A DNA stretch of 64,000 nt from an uncultured Verrucomicrobiae bacterium (GCA_963702845.1 OY969763.1:2784001-2848000); one strand, 5' to 3'. Numbered from the stretch's first letter, positions 48,518 to 53,803 are shown. Translations and numbers: made by a program. The notes: generated from the letters alone by a model not told the origin.

Positions 48518-49132
48518 ATGAGAGCTATTGCAGCATTTCTTCTTCTCGCCGCATGTCATTTGTGTTGTGCGAGCGGCGACACGAATATCATCGCAATGAG
48601 TGATTGGTCGAAGCCCGTCGACACGACGGATGATAGTCTTCGCGTTCGAATGATTGCGGCCTACGGACGTGGACCGGGATTCGGAGGCCCGCACGACGAG
48701 ACGCAGTTCTATTTGGAGTTTCAGAACGTTTCAGGCCCTATCATTTCACCGACTCAGTTTTATTTTGATCCTTCCCGTGGCTTGCGATGCGTGATGAAGG
48801 ACGCCAATGGCAACACGGTGCCTGCTGGTGGAAGTGGCAGCGGCGGCGGCGCTGGCGCGTGTTGGATCACCTTACCGTATGATTCCACGATTCGGCTGCG
48901 CGCCAATATGTTTGGCTACGGCACTAAGCGCGGTGCGGGTTTGATTCTAACTTTGTATCCACCTTATGCATGGGAGTTCAGAGCTGGAGACACCAACAGT
49001 TACTATCTGTCAGGCACGTTTACTGTAACCACGCCGACGAATTTCGTTCCGAAGGATTTCGAGGCTGCTCGTGCTGTGTGGAGTGGCACGCTACAGTTGC
49101 CCAGAATGAAAATTACAGTTCCAAAACCATGA
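48518..49132 (+). CDS. Cassette 1: secreted hypothetical protein
   Basis: Signal peptide; starts just after a TTAGGC site; followed by attC. Confidence 0.75.
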   Translation: MRAIAAFLLLAACHLCCASGDTNIIAMSDWSKPVDTTDDSLRVRMIAAYGRGPGFGGPHDETQFYLEFQNVSGPIISPTQFYFDPSRGLRCVMKDANGNTVPAGGSGSGGGAGACWITLPYDSTIRLRANMFGYGTKRGAGLILTLYPPYAWEFRAGDTNSYYLSGTFTVTTPTNFVPKDFEAARAVWSGTLQLPRMKITVPKP

Positions 49133-49136
49133 CGTT

Positions 49137-49235
49137 GGCTAACAAGGTGCTCGAGCCAACGTCGGTCTGCGTTGGCAGTTCCGCTTTCGCGGTTGACACT
49201 GGGTGCTCGGCGTGGCTCAGCTTGACTCGTTAGAC
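49137..49235 (+). mobile_element. Integron attC site 1
   Basis: GGCTAAC...GCTCGAGCCA...TGGCTCAGC...GTTAGAC. Confidence 0.88.
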
Positions 49236-49245
49236 CACATCAAAT

Positions 49246-49692
49246 ATGGACATGCCTACACCGCCAAAAACGACATCGTTCTCACATCAGGCAGCCAAGC
49301 TCAGTTGGGTTTGCCCCATCATCGTCTTCGTGCTTTTGATGTTCACTAGGCAGATTGGCGCGCGAGTGATTATTGAGATGGTTGCACTTTTACTCATCGT
49401 CGTCGGTCTGGTTTTCGGCATCTTCGCTTTGTTCGGGATTTCCAAGCACGGCACGAAGGGCATCCTCGCACCAGCCATTGTCGGCATCATTGTTAACGGA
49501 CTGTTGCTTTTCATTTTTGTCACGAACTTCATGGCGGCGAGAGCCAGAGCGCAGCAGCACACGAGCATTGAGGCTTCGCCAGTCGTAACCGTGTGTTCTA
49601 ACAAGTCGCTGGAGCCAACCTCCGTTGCCGCTGCCAGTTCCGCTGTCGCGGTTCACGGCACGAGTCGACGGTGGCTCAGCTTTCTATGTTAG
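49246..49692 (+). CDS. Cassette 2: 3-TM membrane protein; ORF reads through its attC
   Basis: Three hydrophobic helices; stop codon is the TAG inside GTTAGGC. Confidence 0.75.
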   Translation: MDMPTPPKTTSFSHQAAKLSWVCPIIVFVLLMFTRQIGARVIIEMVALLLIVVGLVFGIFALFGISKHGTKGILAPAIVGIIVNGLLLFIFVTNFMAARARAQQHTSIEASPVVTVCSNKSLEPTSVAAASSAVAVHGTSRRWLSFLC

Positions 49693-49694
49693 GC
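49596..49694 (+). mobile_element. Integron attC site 2
   Basis: TTCTAAC...GCTGGAGCCA...TGGCTCAGC...GTTAGGC. Confidence 0.9.
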
Positions 49695-49708
49695 ATCATT
49701 CACGCGCC

Positions 49709-50371
49709 ATGAGTATAGAAGCAACAATGGTCAGCTACTACGCGGAGCGAGCCGCAGAATATGAGCGCATTTATCACAAGCCGGAGCGTCAGGCTGACTT
49801 GCGGCAGTTGCGCATTTTTGTCGAGCGCACGTTTGCTGGTGCTGATGTTTTCGAGTTGGCCTGCGGCACAGGTTACTGGACGGAGATTTTATCGCGCACG
49901 GCTGCATCGGTTGTTGCCACGGACATCAACGAGGAGGTTCTGGCGATTGCCCGTTCCAAGCCCATTGATACTCGCAAGGCGACTTTTCGCATAGCGGACG
50001 CTTATCATTTGCCGGACTCCATACAGAGTTTTACCAGTGGTTTATCGGTTTTCTGGTGGTCTCATGTTCCGAAGGCGAGGCTGCGTGGTTTTTTGCGGGG
50101 CTTCCACCGCATTTTTGCACCCGGTGCGCGGATCGTATTCATCGAGAATTGTTACGCCGAGGGAAGCAGCACGTCGATTTCTCGCACCGATGAGCACGGT
50201 GACACATATCAGTTACGACGGTTGGATGACGGCAGCACACACGAGGTTCTCAAGAATTTCCCGACAGAGTCAGAGTTACGTGCCACCGTGGAAGGGTTAG
50301 CATCAGATGTGCAGGTTGAGTTTCTTGAGTATTATTGGATTTTGAGTTATGTGCCAAGAACTGACGCCTAA
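49709..50371 (+). CDS. Cassette 3: class I SAM-dependent methyltransferase
   Basis: YYAERAAEY, FELACGTGYWT, TDIN, FWWSHVP. Confidence 0.9.
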   Translation: MSIEATMVSYYAERAAEYERIYHKPERQADLRQLRIFVERTFAGADVFELACGTGYWTEILSRTAASVVATDINEEVLAIARSKPIDTRKATFRIADAYHLPDSIQSFTSGLSVFWWSHVPKARLRGFLRGFHRIFAPGARIVFIENCYAEGSSTSISRTDEHGDTYQLRRLDDGSTHEVLKNFPTESELRATVEGLASDVQVEFLEYYWILSYVPRTDA

Positions 50372-50487
50372 CCAGAGCGCTCCAGCCATTAGCCGCCGCA
50401 CTTGGCTTTTCGCTCGCCGTTGGTATTCTGTTGTCACTGATTTCGGCTGCGTCCAGCCTCGGCGGCTGTGGCTGAGCTGAACACGTT
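50366..50487 (+). mobile_element. Integron attC site 3, interrupted at its GTT core by the IS (remainder AGAC at 52285-52288)
   Basis: GCCTAAC...GCTCCAGCCA...TGGCTGAGC...CACGTT then IS then AGAC. Confidence 0.85.
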
Positions 50488-50599
50488 GATATGGCTCTCT
50501 GATTGTCAAGTGGGCAGTGCGATTCGGTTTCCGTTTTTTCACGGTTTTTTCTTTCCGGCATTGAGCAATGGACTGTTGGGTTGGCAGAAGCGGCAATCA

Positions 50600-50765
50600 A
50601 CGACGGTTGATCCTGCTGATATGCGTGAGTTCACCCCGCTCTTGCAACGCAAGTGCTGGGCTTATCGACCTGACCACGGTTCGAGTCGCGGCGCTTCCTC
50701 TCTCTAGGCACGAGGGTTCGTTCGCAAGGAACTTCCTCTTAACACTCACGAGGGTTCGCCTAACC
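50600..50765 (-). ncRNA. Putative bridge/seek RNA of the IS110 element
   Basis: Two stem-internal loop-stem modules whose loop strands match the attC core and the IS circle junction; boundaries approximate. Confidence 0.6.
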
Positions 50766-50956
50766 GAGCTGCTCTCTGCCAACTCATCAATCCACTGCAA
50801 AGTTAAAGTTTTTTTATTTGTTCGGTTTTGCCCAGCGATTCGACCGGGTGAGCGCAGCGGCAGCGTAGCGAGAGCTGGCGCGATAGCGCTTCGGCTCACG
50901 TGCTCATCAGCAGTTGGTTTGCTGATAATCGGTTCGTGCCACTTCATTCTTAAATG

Positions 50957-52138
50957 TTATTTTTTATAAGTTCGGGTTGGATTCAGTTTGTAAACGCGGC
51001 CGCGGCAAGTCCGGATAATTTCCGGCGCAGCTGGTTTTTGCGGCGCTTTGATCTGGCAGGCGATGGCCCAGACAAAGCCGGTCAGTTCCCGCGCAATGGC
51101 CGTGACCACCACCACGCTCTTTTTACGAACCGATAGGAAGCGGAACCGTTTATGCAGTCGCTGTTGAGCTTTCCATGCGATCAAGCGGACTTCTTTGCTT
51201 TGTTTTTCCTGTCGTTTTTGCATGGCCTCGCTGACCTGCGGTTTGAGACGGTAATGCCAGGACGCTTCGGTGAGGACGCGCCGGCAGTGGGTGTTGCCGC
51301 ATTTAGTAATCCCACCTTGGCTGCGTTTTCCGCCGCTGCTGTGCTCGCAGGAAGTCAGTCCAAAAAAACTCATCAGCTGCCGCGGCTCAGTAAAGCGGGT
51401 CATGTCCCCAGCCTCAGCCACCAAAGTCATCCCGTTGAGCACTTGCACCCCACGCAAGCTCATCAGCCCGCGCACCACCGGTTCCCATTTCCAGCCCGAC
51501 AAAGAGTTTTCCACTGCTTGAGTCAGTCGTTCCAGTCGCTGGCTGGCGTCGTCGATCGTATGAATGCATTCCTGAAAGACGATTTGCTGCGCCGGTTGCG
51601 GCATGAGCAAGCCGGAGAGATAACGCTTGTGCGCATCGTTCCAACTGGTCTTGCCGCTGTAACGAAAACCCAGTCGCAACAAAAAGCCTTTCAAACGATT
51701 TCGGGCCTGGCGCTGGTCACACACCGCCGCAGTGCGGGCCCGGATCAAATCGCGGATAGCTTCATCCTCCTGATCAGGCACGTAGATGGCCCTCAGTTCT
51801 CCCGCCCGATAAAGACGGGCCAGTTGCTCGGCATCACGCCGATCAGTCTTCACCCGGTCGGAAGCCTTTTTGGGAATGAGCGAAGGCGACACCACATCGC
51901 ATTGGATGCCTTTGCTTTTAAGATAGCGATGAATGACAAAGCCGCAGGGACCCGCTTCGTAAACAAAACGCAGTTCAATGTTTTGTGCAGATAGTTTTTT
52001 GACGAGCTTTTCGACGGCTTCAAGGGCTCCGCCGATGATGCCGTAGGAACGGACCTCGGTGGTATCCTGCGGCGCGATGGCCACGGCAATAGTTTCTTTG
52101 TGGACGTCCAGACCGAGGTAATGCACGATTTTATTCAT
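50957..52138 (-). CDS. IS110-family transposase/recombinase
   Basis: LGLDVHK, YEAGPCG, KTDRRDA (DEDD); GL...EHSSG, GGITKCGN, TAIAREL. Confidence 0.96.
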   Translation of the reverse strand: MNKIVHYLGLDVHKETIAVAIAPQDTTEVRSYGIIGGALEAVEKLVKKLSAQNIELRFVYEAGPCGFVIHRYLKSKGIQCDVVSPSLIPKKASDRVKTDRRDAEQLARLYRAGELRAIYVPDQEDEAIRDLIRARTAAVCDQRQARNRLKGFLLRLGFRYSGKTSWNDAHKRYLSGLLMPQPAQQIVFQECIHTIDDASQRLERLTQAVENSLSGWKWEPVVRGLMSLRGVQVLNGMTLVAEAGDMTRFTEPRQLMSFFGLTSCEHSSGGKRSQGGITKCGNTHCRRVLTEASWHYRLKPQVSEAMQKRQEKQSKEVRLIAWKAQQRLHKRFRFLSVRKKSVVVVTAIARELTGFVWAIACQIKAPQKPAAPEIIRTCRGRVYKLNPTRTYKK

Positions 52139-52303
52139 GGGTGTTTGGTTTCTTTCATTGATGCTGAATCAGCCCCGACCCGCCGTCGGGACTCTCATAT
52201 TGCGGATAGGTCGGCACACGCCGATAACCCGCGTAACACCGAGATCAAACACCCATCTGACTTTCTCGTTAAGCCATATGGTCTAGACTGCTTCGCACCT
52301 GCG

Positions 52304-52432
52304 CTACGCACTCCACTTCCAATCGCGGATCTCCGGCATGTCGTCGCCGTGCTCGCGGATGTAATGATTGTGTTCCATGAGTTTGTTTTGGATGGCCTGT
52401 TTGGCGTAGGCAGCCCGCGCGCCCAGTTGCGG
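52304..52432 (-). pseudogene. xfp: 3'-terminal fragment of phosphoketolase
   Basis: Manual translation PQLGARAAYAKQAIQNKLMEHNHYIREHGDDMPEIRDWKWSA*, matching the XFP C-terminal H..YI..HG.DMPEI..W.W signature. Confidence 0.8.
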
Positions 52433-52566
52433 GTCAAGCGCGATTTGTTGCGCTTGATTCGCAGCGGCAGCAGAACAATAGTCTCCTCAACCAATATGAA
52501 CCAACCGTTCGTATATCAAAATTACCTCGACACCCCGTCGCATAATCATAGTTCGACCCAATAGCT

Positions 52567-53112
52567 ATGCTTCGAGAAGCCGCACTCGAATATTTGAAGG
52601 CCAGGAACGCGAAGCCTAGTGAAACGGTTCAGTTGGGTTGGTTTGTCTTCCGGATAATCGCGACTGACCAGGGGCTTGACCTTGAGACATTAGACTTTAA
52701 GGCACTCGCCTCGTTTACTACAGATTTTGAAATTCCTGAGCGTGTTCATTGGGCTCAACAAGAGACGTTACGGCGTCTCGGTGCTTCGGCTATGGCTTGT
52801 ACGTTGAGCCAGCCAGCTCTTGTCAGTCGGTCGTATTCGCCCGGATCGAAACAGGCTTTCATCGAGCGCGGTCAGCTGACAAGCCAGTCCGATTCAGGCT
52901 GGTATGTCGGCGTCCTTGGCGACACATTGGATATGAGACTCGCTAGTTCTTTCGTCCACCAGTCGCTTTACGAGTTGTCTATTCGTGATCAGCGACTGGT
53001 CAGGTTTTGGCTGTTACCGGTCGGCTACCGTGTCTTTTTTGGTGACGATGAACCGAGAATCGAAAGGGTCGAACCAGACGGTGCAGCGAATGCGGCTTCG
53101 CCGCATCGCTGA
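52567..53112 (+). CDS. Cassette 4 gene: Imm33/DUF2185-like immunity-type protein
   Basis: DSGWY motif, SLYEL, LLPVG; overlaps attC 4. Confidence 0.6.
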   Translation: MLREAALEYLKARNAKPSETVQLGWFVFRIIATDQGLDLETLDFKALASFTTDFEIPERVHWAQQETLRRLGASAMACTLSQPALVSRSYSPGSKQAFIERGQLTSQSDSGWYVGVLGDTLDMRLASSFVHQSLYELSIRDQRLVRFWLLPVGYRVFFGDDEPRIERVEPDGAANAASPHR

Positions 53113-53126
53113 CATCTTCGTTAGGC
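53068..53126 (+). mobile_element. Integron attC site 4 (short)
   Basis: GTCGAAC...CAGCGAATGCGG-CTTCG-CCGCATCGCTG...GTTAGGC. Confidence 0.8.
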
Positions 53127-53129
53127 CAC

Positions 53130-53507
53130 TTGAACATTATAAAAACATTACCGTTTATTCTGCTGCTGGCTCTTGTTGGTTGTGACCGTTCCGGGCAGGA
53201 AGCTGTTTTGGCGCAAACCAGCGAACAAGTCCGGCAATGGGTTCCGATGAGGAGTTCTCTCACTACCGCGCGGCAGAGGATGGAGCAGCATCAATACAGG
53301 TGCTCCGTGACTTCATTCGATAGCCTCGAGGAGATGCAGCGGGTGCGACCGAAAGAAACTGCGATCTGGAAGGAGCGAGTGATCCGAGATCACGTGACAC
53401 AAGCCATCACCAATGTCACCTATTTGGAATGCAAGCAAGAGCATCTGGTCGTTCTTTTACGGTTGGTCAATGGTGAGACGAGCGGAATCTTTTCGGCACA
53501 ACATTAG
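53130..53507 (+). CDS. Cassette 5: hypothetical lipoprotein
   Basis: TTG start right after attC; lipobox LLLALVGC. Confidence 0.65.
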   Translation: MNIIKTLPFILLLALVGCDRSGQEAVLAQTSEQVRQWVPMRSSLTTARQRMEQHQYRCSVTSFDSLEEMQRVRPKETAIWKERVIRDHVTQAITNVTYLECKQEHLVVLLRLVNGETSGIFSAQH

Positions 53508-53599
53508 GCATCATGTGTGCGTCTACACCAAAGGCGGCTAGAATCTGGAAACGGATACTCCTGATGGCAGAAGGTTGTTATATATTTTATGACGCTGAT

Positions 53600-53698
53600 G
53601 CCCAACCATGCGCTTGAGCCAACGCCGGTTTGCGTTGGCAATTCCGCTTACGCGGTCGACATCAGGTGTCCGACGTGGCTCAGCTTGGGTTGTTAAGC
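53600..53698 (+). mobile_element. Integron attC site 5
   Basis: GCCCAAC...GCTTGAGCCA...TGGCTCAGC...GTTAAGC; similar to attC 1 and 2. Confidence 0.88.
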
Positions 53699-53803
53699 CG
53701 CATTTAGAACGCCCTTCGATCGTATCTTTGTTGCGTTCGCTTTTCTCTCTTCCACGCAACTCCACCCTCGCCCTTCAAAACCAAACCCGATACAATCGCG
53801 CCC

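Follow-up and report, generated by a model that had tools for sequence, protein, structure and literature searches.

A candidate guide-RNA module for the attC core in the long non-coding end of an IS1111-type insertion sequence from an uncultured Verrucomicrobiae bacterium

The stretch analysed here, which we call the window, comprises 64,000 nucleotides (nt) of DNA from an uncultured Verrucomicrobiae bacterium (GCA_963702845.1 OY969763.1:2784001-2848000). Within this window lies an insertion sequence (IS) of the IS110 family, inserted in an attC site of an array of gene cassettes. The non-coding DNA downstream of its transposase gene had been proposed, from the sequence only, to encode a bridge-RNA-like guide programmed for the attC core (hereafter the original prediction), and this candidate guide RNA is the subject of the present analysis. 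All coordinates are those of the window, and guide strings are read on the minus strand, which is the strand of the transposase. The element and its insertion site consist of the following features.

50488..52284, minus strand: the whole IS, 1797 bp, delimited by alignment of three genomic copies and by 13 related left ends and 10 right ends
50957..52138, minus strand: transposase/recombinase gene of the DEDD type, 393 aa, assigned by open reading frame (ORF) and Pfam domains
52272..52278, minus strand: subterminal inverted repeat of the left end, TATGGCT, with the terminal extension (A)GACCA before it
50490..50496, minus strand: subterminal inverted repeat of the right end, AGCCATA, with TC(A) as the terminal bases after it
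50366..50487, plus strand: interrupted attC of a methyltransferase cassette, from R'' GCCTAAC (50366) to ...GAACAC GTT (50485-50487) of R', the remaining AGAC being at 52285-52288
50504..50509, minus strand: TTGACA, located 16 nt from the right end and conserved in the alignment

The transposase matched two Pfam families above their cut-offs, PF01548 (DEDD_Tnp_IS110; 66.3 bits, E 3.6e-18) and PF02371 (Transposase_20; 68.6 bits, E 6.4e-19). The left end and the ATG are 146 nt apart (52284 to 52139), and the stop codon and the right end 469 nt (50956 to 50488), the longer non-coding region lying downstream of the gene for the transposase as in IS1111-type elements. A short left end, a long right non-coding end, subterminal repeats and the absence of target duplication have been described for the IS1111-type layout (Siddiquee et al. 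2024; Durrant et al. 2024), and the layout of this element is of the IS1111 type of the IS110 family. Its subterminal repeats of 7-8 bp are at the short end of the published range, which is given either as generally 11-13 bp, the extensions being 7 or 6 and 3 bp, or as repeats of 7-17 bp (Siddiquee et al. 2024; Durrant et al. 2024). Three copies of the IS were detected in the genome at 98-100% identity with sharp common boundaries, together with two left-end stumps of about 100 bp. The sequence common to the copies runs from (A)GACCATATGGCT... at 52284 to ...GAGAGCCATATC at 50488, and one A (T on the plus strand) at either boundary is common to the element and the target. The transposase frame is open only in the window copy; the other two copies (L002 and L003) carry CGA>TGA at codon 309 (equivalent to window position 51214), and L003 has lost its right end, the last ~70 bp being gone. 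The two stumps (L004:1501-1601 and L005:1501-1578) belong to related elements elsewhere in the genome, one of them following GAGCCTA, and resemble the degenerate footprints described for attC-targeting IS. The conserved TTGACA may represent the -35 box of a junction promoter; a consensus promoter scan gave no sigma-70-type site in the window element or on the end-to-end junction found in one relative (locus L100, described below).

At the insertion site, the plus strand reads GTT-IS-AGAC. There is no target duplication, and removal of the IS restores the 7-bp R' core GTTAGAC. An attC profile seeded from two neighbouring attC sites gave three intact attC sites in the window (49129-49244, 49589-49701 and 53592-53704), each of them on the plus strand. 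As the R' core is restored by removal of the IS and the attC array is on the plus strand, the IS is located antisense to the cassettes and inside the attC core, at or one base from the crossover point of the integrase. After three rounds, the profile identified 20 attC sites in the whole genome, arranged singly or in small groups at 10 or more separate places. An integron integrase was not found above the family cut-off in this genome (best hit 85.9 bits versus 265).

The candidate RNA is encoded between the transposase gene and the right end, and its features are listed here in the order of transcription of the transposase strand, with the whole domain first.

50573..50790, minus strand: structured RNA domain of ~215 nt, candidate bridge/seek RNA, with closing helix, target arm, donor region and third hairpin
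50774..50786, minus strand: 5' strand of the closing helix P1 (helix 1), in which 6 of 15 pairs are changed on both sides
50690..50760, minus strand: target-binding arm, with stems GGCG/CGCC and CCUC/GAGG, an internal loop, the inner stem GAGG/CCUC and a variable distal hairpin
50739..50749, minus strand: 5' strand of the target loop, GUGAGUGUUAA, predicted to pair with the right half-site T-A-AC-N(3-5) on its top strand (that of the transposase), and covarying with the right flank
50701..50711, minus strand: 3' strand of the target loop, GUGCCUAGAGA, in the same sense as the left half-site GCCT-A and hence predicted to pair with the bottom strand
50671..50677, minus strand: GUGGUCA, the first donor strand of the original prediction, in which UGGUC is complementary to the left-end bases GACCA
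50634..50660, minus strand: variable distal hairpin of the donor region, in which 6 of 7 pairs are changed on both sides
50616..50623, minus strand: CAUAUCAG, in the same sense as the circle junction ...CATATC-A-G...
50596..50611, minus strand: third hairpin AUCAAC-CGUC-GUUGAU, invariant, and kept also in ISSso6, in a Lichenicola element and in the relative L025
50577..50589, minus strand: 3' strand of the closing helix P1, partner of 50774..50786

The original prediction described a module, GAACCCTCGTG-N7-AGAGGAAG, repeated twice and forming an internal loop. Direct reading of the minus strand gave this module at 50757-50731 and 50719-50693, and the four guide strings were located exactly where they had been placed (GTGAGTGTTAA at 50749-50739, GTGCCTAGAGA at 50711-50701, GTGGTCA at 50677-50671 and CATATCAG at 50623-50616). 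The CCUC of each repeat pairs with the GAGG of the other, leaving a loop of 11 x 11 nt, which was present in both the minimum free energy (MFE) fold of the single sequence and the RNAalifold consensus of 12 sequences. The two bases after GCCUA in the 3' loop strand, GA, are the same as the start of the IS left end. A reading of this GA as a handshake guide in the sense of IS621 was rejected, because the handshake dinucleotides of IS621 extend the top-strand guides.

For comparison, related elements were collected from genomes and metagenomes. The scan of one genome per species yielded 18 related loci, nearly all from metagenome-assembled genomes (MAGs) of Verrucomicrobiota. The identity of their transposases to that of the window was 73-83% for nine loci (two of which are partial), 49-53% for two (L018 and L020) and 31-50% for the other seven. 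Among metagenome contigs, 107 stretches matched in one scan a pattern made from the invariant third hairpin, and 80 of these were fetched. In total, about 90 relatives from MAGs and soil metagenomes were included in the RNA comparisons.

The secondary structure was scored as a specified structure of 48 pairs on an alignment of 11 sequences, with two controls, one in which the 3' partners were slid by 1-3 columns and the other of 500 shuffles. RNAalifold on the first MAFFT alignment had given 27 pairs with zero compensatory changes. Because the stems bounding the loop are invariant and the variable hairpins were misaligned in that run, the structure was scored by specification and the target arms were parsed by anchors. 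In the specified structure, 91.6% of the cells pair versus 34-44% with slid partners, and compensatory changes on both sides were observed in 13 of the 48 pairs versus 3-5 after sliding; the observed measures were reached by 0-2 of the 500 shuffles. The anchor-based parsing gave 84 target arms from 91 loci, 66 of which are distinct. The outer stems were invariant throughout these 66 arms, while three double changes were found in the inner stem GAGG/CCUC (two from A-U to C-G and one from G-C to C-G), and 54 of the 55 different distal hairpins fold as an extension of the stem. The strong covariation of the closing helix and of the two distal hairpins, together with the conservation of the target arms, indicates that the region 50573-50790 is a discrete structured unit of ~215 nt.

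Some rearrangements were noted within this unit. The L002 and L003 copies are near-identical to the window copy except for the hairpin at 50634-50660, which is replaced in both by a different, shorter hairpin, and the shorter type was detected also in a soil metagenome contig (run X2). In another relative (L063:573-642, reverse strand), the right end CCATATC is directly followed by AGCGCGGTTTGGGCGAACCCTCG..., the start of the RNA module of the same element. This arrangement could be a small circle or a rearrangement with the RNA module only, or an assembly artefact.

The two strands of the target loop were then compared with the DNA flanking each insertion. The 3' loop strand was near-constant, with GCCUAGA in 65 of the 66 distinct arms and GCUUAGA in one, the rare variant being carried by L057 and L069. 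The left flanks (n=13) end with GCCT in seven cases, with GTCT in the window copy, and with GACT, TACT, GAAT, GCCC and GGCC in one case each; the last base was T for 11 of the 13. In the 5' loop strand, the 3' part is constant (CGUUAA, or UGUUAA in the genome of the window and a few others) and the preceding positions are variable. Many flanks were attC-like, and the right flanks of 74 unique insertions begin with AAC in 69 cases and with AGC in four, the last case being a right end joined to a left end. For 74 independent insertions, the reverse complement of the 5' strand matched flank positions 4-9 at 2.96 of 6 positions on average, versus 2.46 +/- 0.075 when the loops were shuffled among loci, and none of 20000 shuffles reached the observed value. 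The original prediction had named covariation between loops and targets as a check of its guides, and the variable 5' loop strand does track the right flank in this way.

The same relationship was observed position by position in 76 unique pairs, collected with a slightly wider anchor. At flank position 4, A was found in four of the five cases in which the guide predicts A, and G in 67 of the 70 in which it predicts G. At position 5, C was present in 8 of 11 flanks when predicted, versus 4 of 52 where A was predicted, and at position 6, T was present in 7 of 11 when predicted, versus 10 of 60 where C was predicted. Individual guides match their flanks by up to 8 nt, as in the case of GGGAAUGUUAA at AACATTCC, GUUGUUGUUAA at AACAACAA, and GUUGGCGUUAA at AACGCCAA. 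The guide of the window's genome predicts AACAC, and the L002 copy sits at AACAC. This comparison shows guide positions that are apparently read, strongly for flank positions 4-6 and weakly for 7-8. The short matches between guides and core are weak when taken alone; the comparative evidence is strong.

The attC-like nature of the insertion sites was apparent also from the flanks themselves. An imperfect palindrome AAC...GTT, with preferred lengths of 85, 94 and 118 nt, was detected in 34 of the 78 flanks of at least 116 nt, versus 3 of 78 after shuffling. For 15 flanks, a match to the attC profile of the genome begins directly where the IS ends and lies on the strand that does not encode the transposase. 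Among the genomic relatives, attC matches were found for 8 of the 23 sequences scanned, and all 13 matches were likewise on this opposite strand. The profile match in L014 abuts the IS with its 3' end, so that the IS is located at the site's R' end. In L024 (2030-2100), the gene for a related transposase breaks off after roughly codon 181, where the 3' half of an attC is attached.

Next to the target loop, the original prediction proposed a second loop for the donor, with GUGGUCA and CAUAUCAG matching the junction of a circular form. The predicted junction fits the boundaries given by the three genomic copies, and the sequence CCATATC-A-GACCGTATGGCT is directly present in L100. In this metagenome contig (L100:560-620), only one A separates the two ends, as CCATATC-A-GACC, and a complete left end and the beginning of the transposase gene come next; the head-to-tail junction may come from a circular intermediate or from a tandem copy. 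For the window element itself, no such junction was observed. CAUAUCAG spans this junction of right end, A and left end. Among 89 loci with a parsed right end it was exact in 67, with one difference in 22. It occupies a multi-branch junction, between ACUCACG directly on its 5' side and the third hairpin on its 3' side, and donor-binding nucleotides are described at such a place for many IS1111 elements (Durrant et al. 2024). In ISSso6, the Lichenicola plasmid element and L025, AUAUCAG followed by GAUCAACCGUCG is kept, and their right ends likewise finish in CATATC or a sequence close to it. The L023 group has CCATAGC as its right end and CACAGCAG in the RNA, a T>G change common to the guide and the right end.

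The behaviour of GUGGUCA was different. Except for its last base it was invariant in about 90 relatives, while left-end position 5 varies among A, C, T and G. Five of its bases pair within the helix CGUGGU/ACUCACG in the consensus, versus a location in the loop of a 3-bp hairpin in the MFE fold. The L023 group, having the same left end AGACC, reads GUGGUGA, and the sequence AGGUCU further on fits the left end better. As GUGGUCA is invariant despite a variable left end, with three competing local folds, the donor loop is only half supported: the CAUAUCAG strand does span the junction, and GUGGUCA is a putative donor strand, most of its bases falling into a predicted helix or the loop of a small hairpin.

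A variant of the CAUAUCAG region was observed in association with a variant right end. All 14 loci with the right end CCATGTC carry CAUCUCAG (L034, L037, L038, L044, L051, L064, L071, L082, L084, L090, L098, L099, L104 and L108). CAUCUCAG was also found with CCATATC in seven loci, and the combination of CAUAUCAG with CCATGTC in 0 of 89. The two changes (A>G in DNA and A>C in RNA) are not Watson-Crick compensatory under the same-sense model, and the association may reflect descent or a further contact.

The domains of the transposase, the conserved and covarying RNA, the attC-like insertion sites and the covariation between guides and flanks altogether support the proposal that a recombinase is guided to attC cores. 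Based on these comparisons, the region very probably represents the guide-RNA module, directed at the attC core, of an IS110-family element that is of active type and has the IS1111-type layout. In the most likely scheme, the 3' end would yield a structured RNA of ~215 nt, or a shorter processed form, which would bind the recombinase. On the target side, the 11 x 11 nt loop of the first arm would pair with both half-sites, the two pairings overlapping on the central T-A, and the two target guides would jointly spell the attC inverse core GCCTAAC, i.e., GTTAGGC on the cassette strand. On the donor side, the ends of the excised 1797-bp circle (...CCATATC-A-GACC...) would be read at least by CAUAUCAG beside the third hairpin, and a GGUC motif may take part in this reading. 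By recombination at the common A, the IS would come to lie within the R' core of an attC, in antisense orientation to the cassettes and with no duplication, and the site of the integron integrase would be split. For this scheme, we infer the production and processing of the RNA, its binding to the protein and the chemistry of recombination.

A number of observations weigh against this interpretation. The folding energy of the single sequence gave z values of +0.33 for 201 nt, -1.77 for the 218-nt domain (11 of 200 shuffles being as good) and -2.23 for 481 nt; the first of these values is not significant and the other two are modest, and the folding energy of the window sequence alone does not stand out. 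The stems bounding the target loop and the helix CGUGGU/ACUCACG hardly or never vary, and covariation therefore cannot confirm these stems. The window copy itself sits at AACGT, where U.G and G.T wobbles are needed, its right guide pairing with TAAC plus these two wobbles, and its left half-site is GTCT rather than GCCT. The commonest guide, GUUGUCGUUAA, was found at many different flanks, indicating that specificity beyond TAACG is loose. The incomplete support for the donor loop belongs here as well, since in 22 of the 89 relatives the CAUAUCAG region mismatches the element's own right end. An Rfam scan of 49500-53500 at E<=1 gave no family match. Of the 20 sequencing runs listed, none contained more than 0.31 of the sampled words, and one RNA and three DNA runs were compared with the element; the RNA library with related sequence gave one 270-nt contig, which covers the transposase gene only, and none on the non-coding end.

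For the donor side, another function is conceivable, namely that of a seekRNA with a target guide only. The first loop would guide the target, the ends would be recognised through the subterminal repeats by the protein or other parts of the RNA, and GUGGUCA and CAUAUCAG would be structural. This would account for the constancy of GUGGUCA next to a left end that varies at position 5, for the pairing of five of its bases with ACUCACG in the consensus fold, and for the reading GUGGUGA in the L023 group with its left end AGACC. In addition, ISSso6, L025 and L030 show a short closed hairpin at the equivalent place, CAUCUCAG matches neither of the right ends with which it occurs (CCATATC in 7 loci and CCATGTC in 14), and for the short seekRNA only matches to the target are reported (Siddiquee et al. 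2024). A structural role does not, however, explain why all 8 nt of CAUAUCAG agree with the junction in 67 of 89 relatives, the junction itself being observed, nor the T>G change common to the guide and the right end of the L023 group, nor its position where many IS1111 elements have donor-binding nucleotides (Durrant et al. 2024). We consider a guide for the target only to be unlikely, but still deserving of some weight.

Recognition of attC by the protein alone appears very improbable. The 3' region would in that case be a structured untranslated region concerned with stability, termination or regulation, and the core matches would have arisen by chance or shared ancestry. The lack of cover of the non-coding end in the RNA library and of a match in Rfam agrees with this possibility, as does the shortness of the GCCUA and GUUA matches, just 4-5 nt, and conservation alone cannot separate a guide from a scaffold because all the relatives have the same target. 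In contrast, the variable loop positions covary with the flank at a level reached by 0 of 20000 shuffles, including the pairs GGGAAUGUUAA/AACATTCC, GUUGUUGUUAA/AACAACAA and GUUGGCGUUAA/AACGCCAA, and RNA dependence is experimentally established for other members of the family (Siddiquee et al. 2024; Durrant et al. 2024). Still less credence is given to a pseudo-attC, in which GTTAGGC at 50764-50758 and GCCTA at 50708-50704 would be used by an integron integrase and the element would be cassette-like. One related element, L017, ends exactly at ...GAGCCTA followed by ACGATCCAAAGCTGAGCCAC, with the guide-encoded GCCTA fused to a true attC. GTTAGGC is, however, not conserved, the relatives reading GTTAAGGC, GTTCAGGC or GTTTAGGC, and its presence just 5' of the target arm is probably coincidental because the relatives have one extra base. 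The absence of an integrase above the cut-off (85.9 bits versus 265) also speaks against such use, and the sharp IS boundaries, the subterminal repeats and the junction between the right and left ends fit transposition. As to L017 itself (2560-2640), the element is cut inside the DNA encoding the 3' strand of the target loop, with ...CCCTCGAGCCTA joined to ACGATCCAAAGCTGAGCCAC, and this suggests recombination between a pseudo-core in the IS and a real attC core.

IS1111 elements that target attC, the IS1111-attC group (ISPa21, ISPst6, ISKpn4; also ISPa25), are said to have been described by Tetu and Holmes in 2008 and by Post and Hall in 2009. IS of this family with attC as the target have thus been known since 2008-2009, and such elements and their seekRNAs having been published, the idea itself is not new. 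The seekRNAs of ISKpn4 and ISPst6 are recovered together with the transposase on purification and match both strands of the target, and ISPa25 has the same target matches with a transposase that is 46% identical (Siddiquee et al. 2024). In the table of a 2026 review, the targets are given as, for example, CGGCTTGAA and CGAATTGTTAG on the two sides of the cut, which is 11 nt before the GTTAG core. As far as these published descriptions go, the window element resembles this group in being an IS with a DEDD transposase and a long non-coding region downstream of the gene, in its insertion in attC antisense to the cassettes, and in the 3' region RNA with the top-strand match located 5' of the bottom-strand match, an order given also for IS1111 in the table of the review. 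The service of one RNA module to transposases only ~46-53% identical is also common to both, as seen with ISKpn4 and ISPa25 in the published work and with L018 and L020 among the present relatives. These two loci have transposases only 49-53% identical to that of the window, yet their left end and 3' RNA region are ~76% identical, and the module of ends plus RNA seems to be exchanged between recombinase genes or to be far more constrained than these genes.

The differences from the IS1111-attC group concern the cut site and the lineage. The published cut is AA/CG or AG/CG at 11 nt before GTTAG, whereas the window element cuts within the 7-bp core (GCCT-A-AC, equal to GTT/AGGC). The nearest named transposases are those of ISSso6 (47.5%) and ISEc45 (46.8%), not those of the ISPst6 group, and no plasmid match exceeded 53%. 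The RNA region is without blastn similarity to any plasmid record, the search with the 481-nt non-coding end giving only 8 chance-level fragments (coverage <=8%, E>=2). The hosts are Verrucomicrobiota MAGs and soil metagenomes, versus Pseudomonas or clinical class 1 integrons. Judged by its nearest named relatives at ~47%, the window transposase appears to lie outside the monophyletic ISPa21/ISPst6 subgroup, which points against membership, and an independent origin of attC targeting is likely. A candidate, H11, considered as a copy of ISPa21, was rejected, as it is not located in an integron.

The window element is assigned to the clade of ISCARN28, ISSso6 and ISEc45, its closest named relatives as judged from transposase identity, with the N-terminal motifs compared by eye. 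ISSso6 has the same layout, with 11-bp subterminal repeats and a right end of ...GTCATATC followed by A, and its 3' region contains AAUAUCAGCGUGAUUCACCGUCG, equivalent to CAUAUCAGCAGGAUCAACCGUCG in the window. It differs in that the copy examined is located between ...ATATTGGT and ACCGAATG, which is not attC, and its target arm could not be aligned by eye. The bridge RNA of ISCARN28 was among six inspected in published work (Durrant et al. 2024), and this element stands between ISSso6 and ISEc45 in the identity matrix of the supplement of Siddiquee et al. (2024).

With the bridge RNA of IS621 (Durrant et al. 2024; Hiraizumi et al. 2024), the candidate shares a structured RNA in which each strand of an internal loop is matched to a different strand of the target, one per half-site, with an overlap on the core, and also the absence of target duplication; a second part reading the donor junction between right and left ends and a circular intermediate may likewise be common to both. 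Unlike that of IS621, the RNA of the window is encoded 3' of the gene instead of 5', the top-strand guide comes first (the bottom-strand guide in IS621), the core appears to be a single A (or YA) instead of CT, and the bases that would read the donor are located outside a clean second internal loop. The original prediction took the region for a bispecific guide RNA of an IS110-family non-coding end; its target loop is borne out, and the order of the guides and the 3' location are those of an IS1111-type seekRNA rather than of IS621. Group IIC-attC introns are likewise RNA-guided and home to attC sites in the antisense orientation; they are, in contrast, ribozyme/reverse-transcriptase retroelements, unrelated in sequence and chemistry.

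The distribution of the RNA region was tested in other collections. It was present in 2 of 401 sampled genomes of the class, the genome of the window included, giving no new sites, and a scan of viral contigs for the related region gave 0 matches. As to the neighbouring DNA, the cassette adjoining the IS (52289-52480) holds the end of a minus-strand ORF, ...HNHYIREHGDDMPEIRDWKWSA followed by a stop codon. We take this end to resemble the C-terminus of a phosphoketolase, and it looks like a gene fragment inside the cassette.

The known mechanism is unchanged by these findings. Both the mechanism and the class of target are already in print, and what is new is the lineage and the cut site within the attC core. 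We tentatively propose, with somewhat less than even confidence, that a recombinase clade related to ISSso6 and ISCARN28, apart from the classical IS1111-attC group, has been programmed independently for the universal 7-bp core at the crossover of the integrase, rather than for an arm of particular attC types. Individual copies would adapt the right guide, over up to 8-9 nt, to the spacers of particular attC subfamilies, representing natural reprogramming in progress, and GCCTAGA may also act as a pseudo-core for truncation, as in L017. For integrons, the element very probably represents a second route by which RNA-guided IS enter cassette arrays, acting at the core site itself. As each insertion splits the R' box, the excision of the upstream cassette should be blocked. 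In soil metagenomes the element is common, a single scan giving 107 matching stretches, and its host genome has scattered attC sites and no recognisable integron integrase. For work on bridge and seek RNAs, the ~75 independent natural insertions provide a ready-made covariation set, according to which a short constant left guide with a tunable right guide would suffice, together with a compact natural system whose target sequence occurs in every integron.

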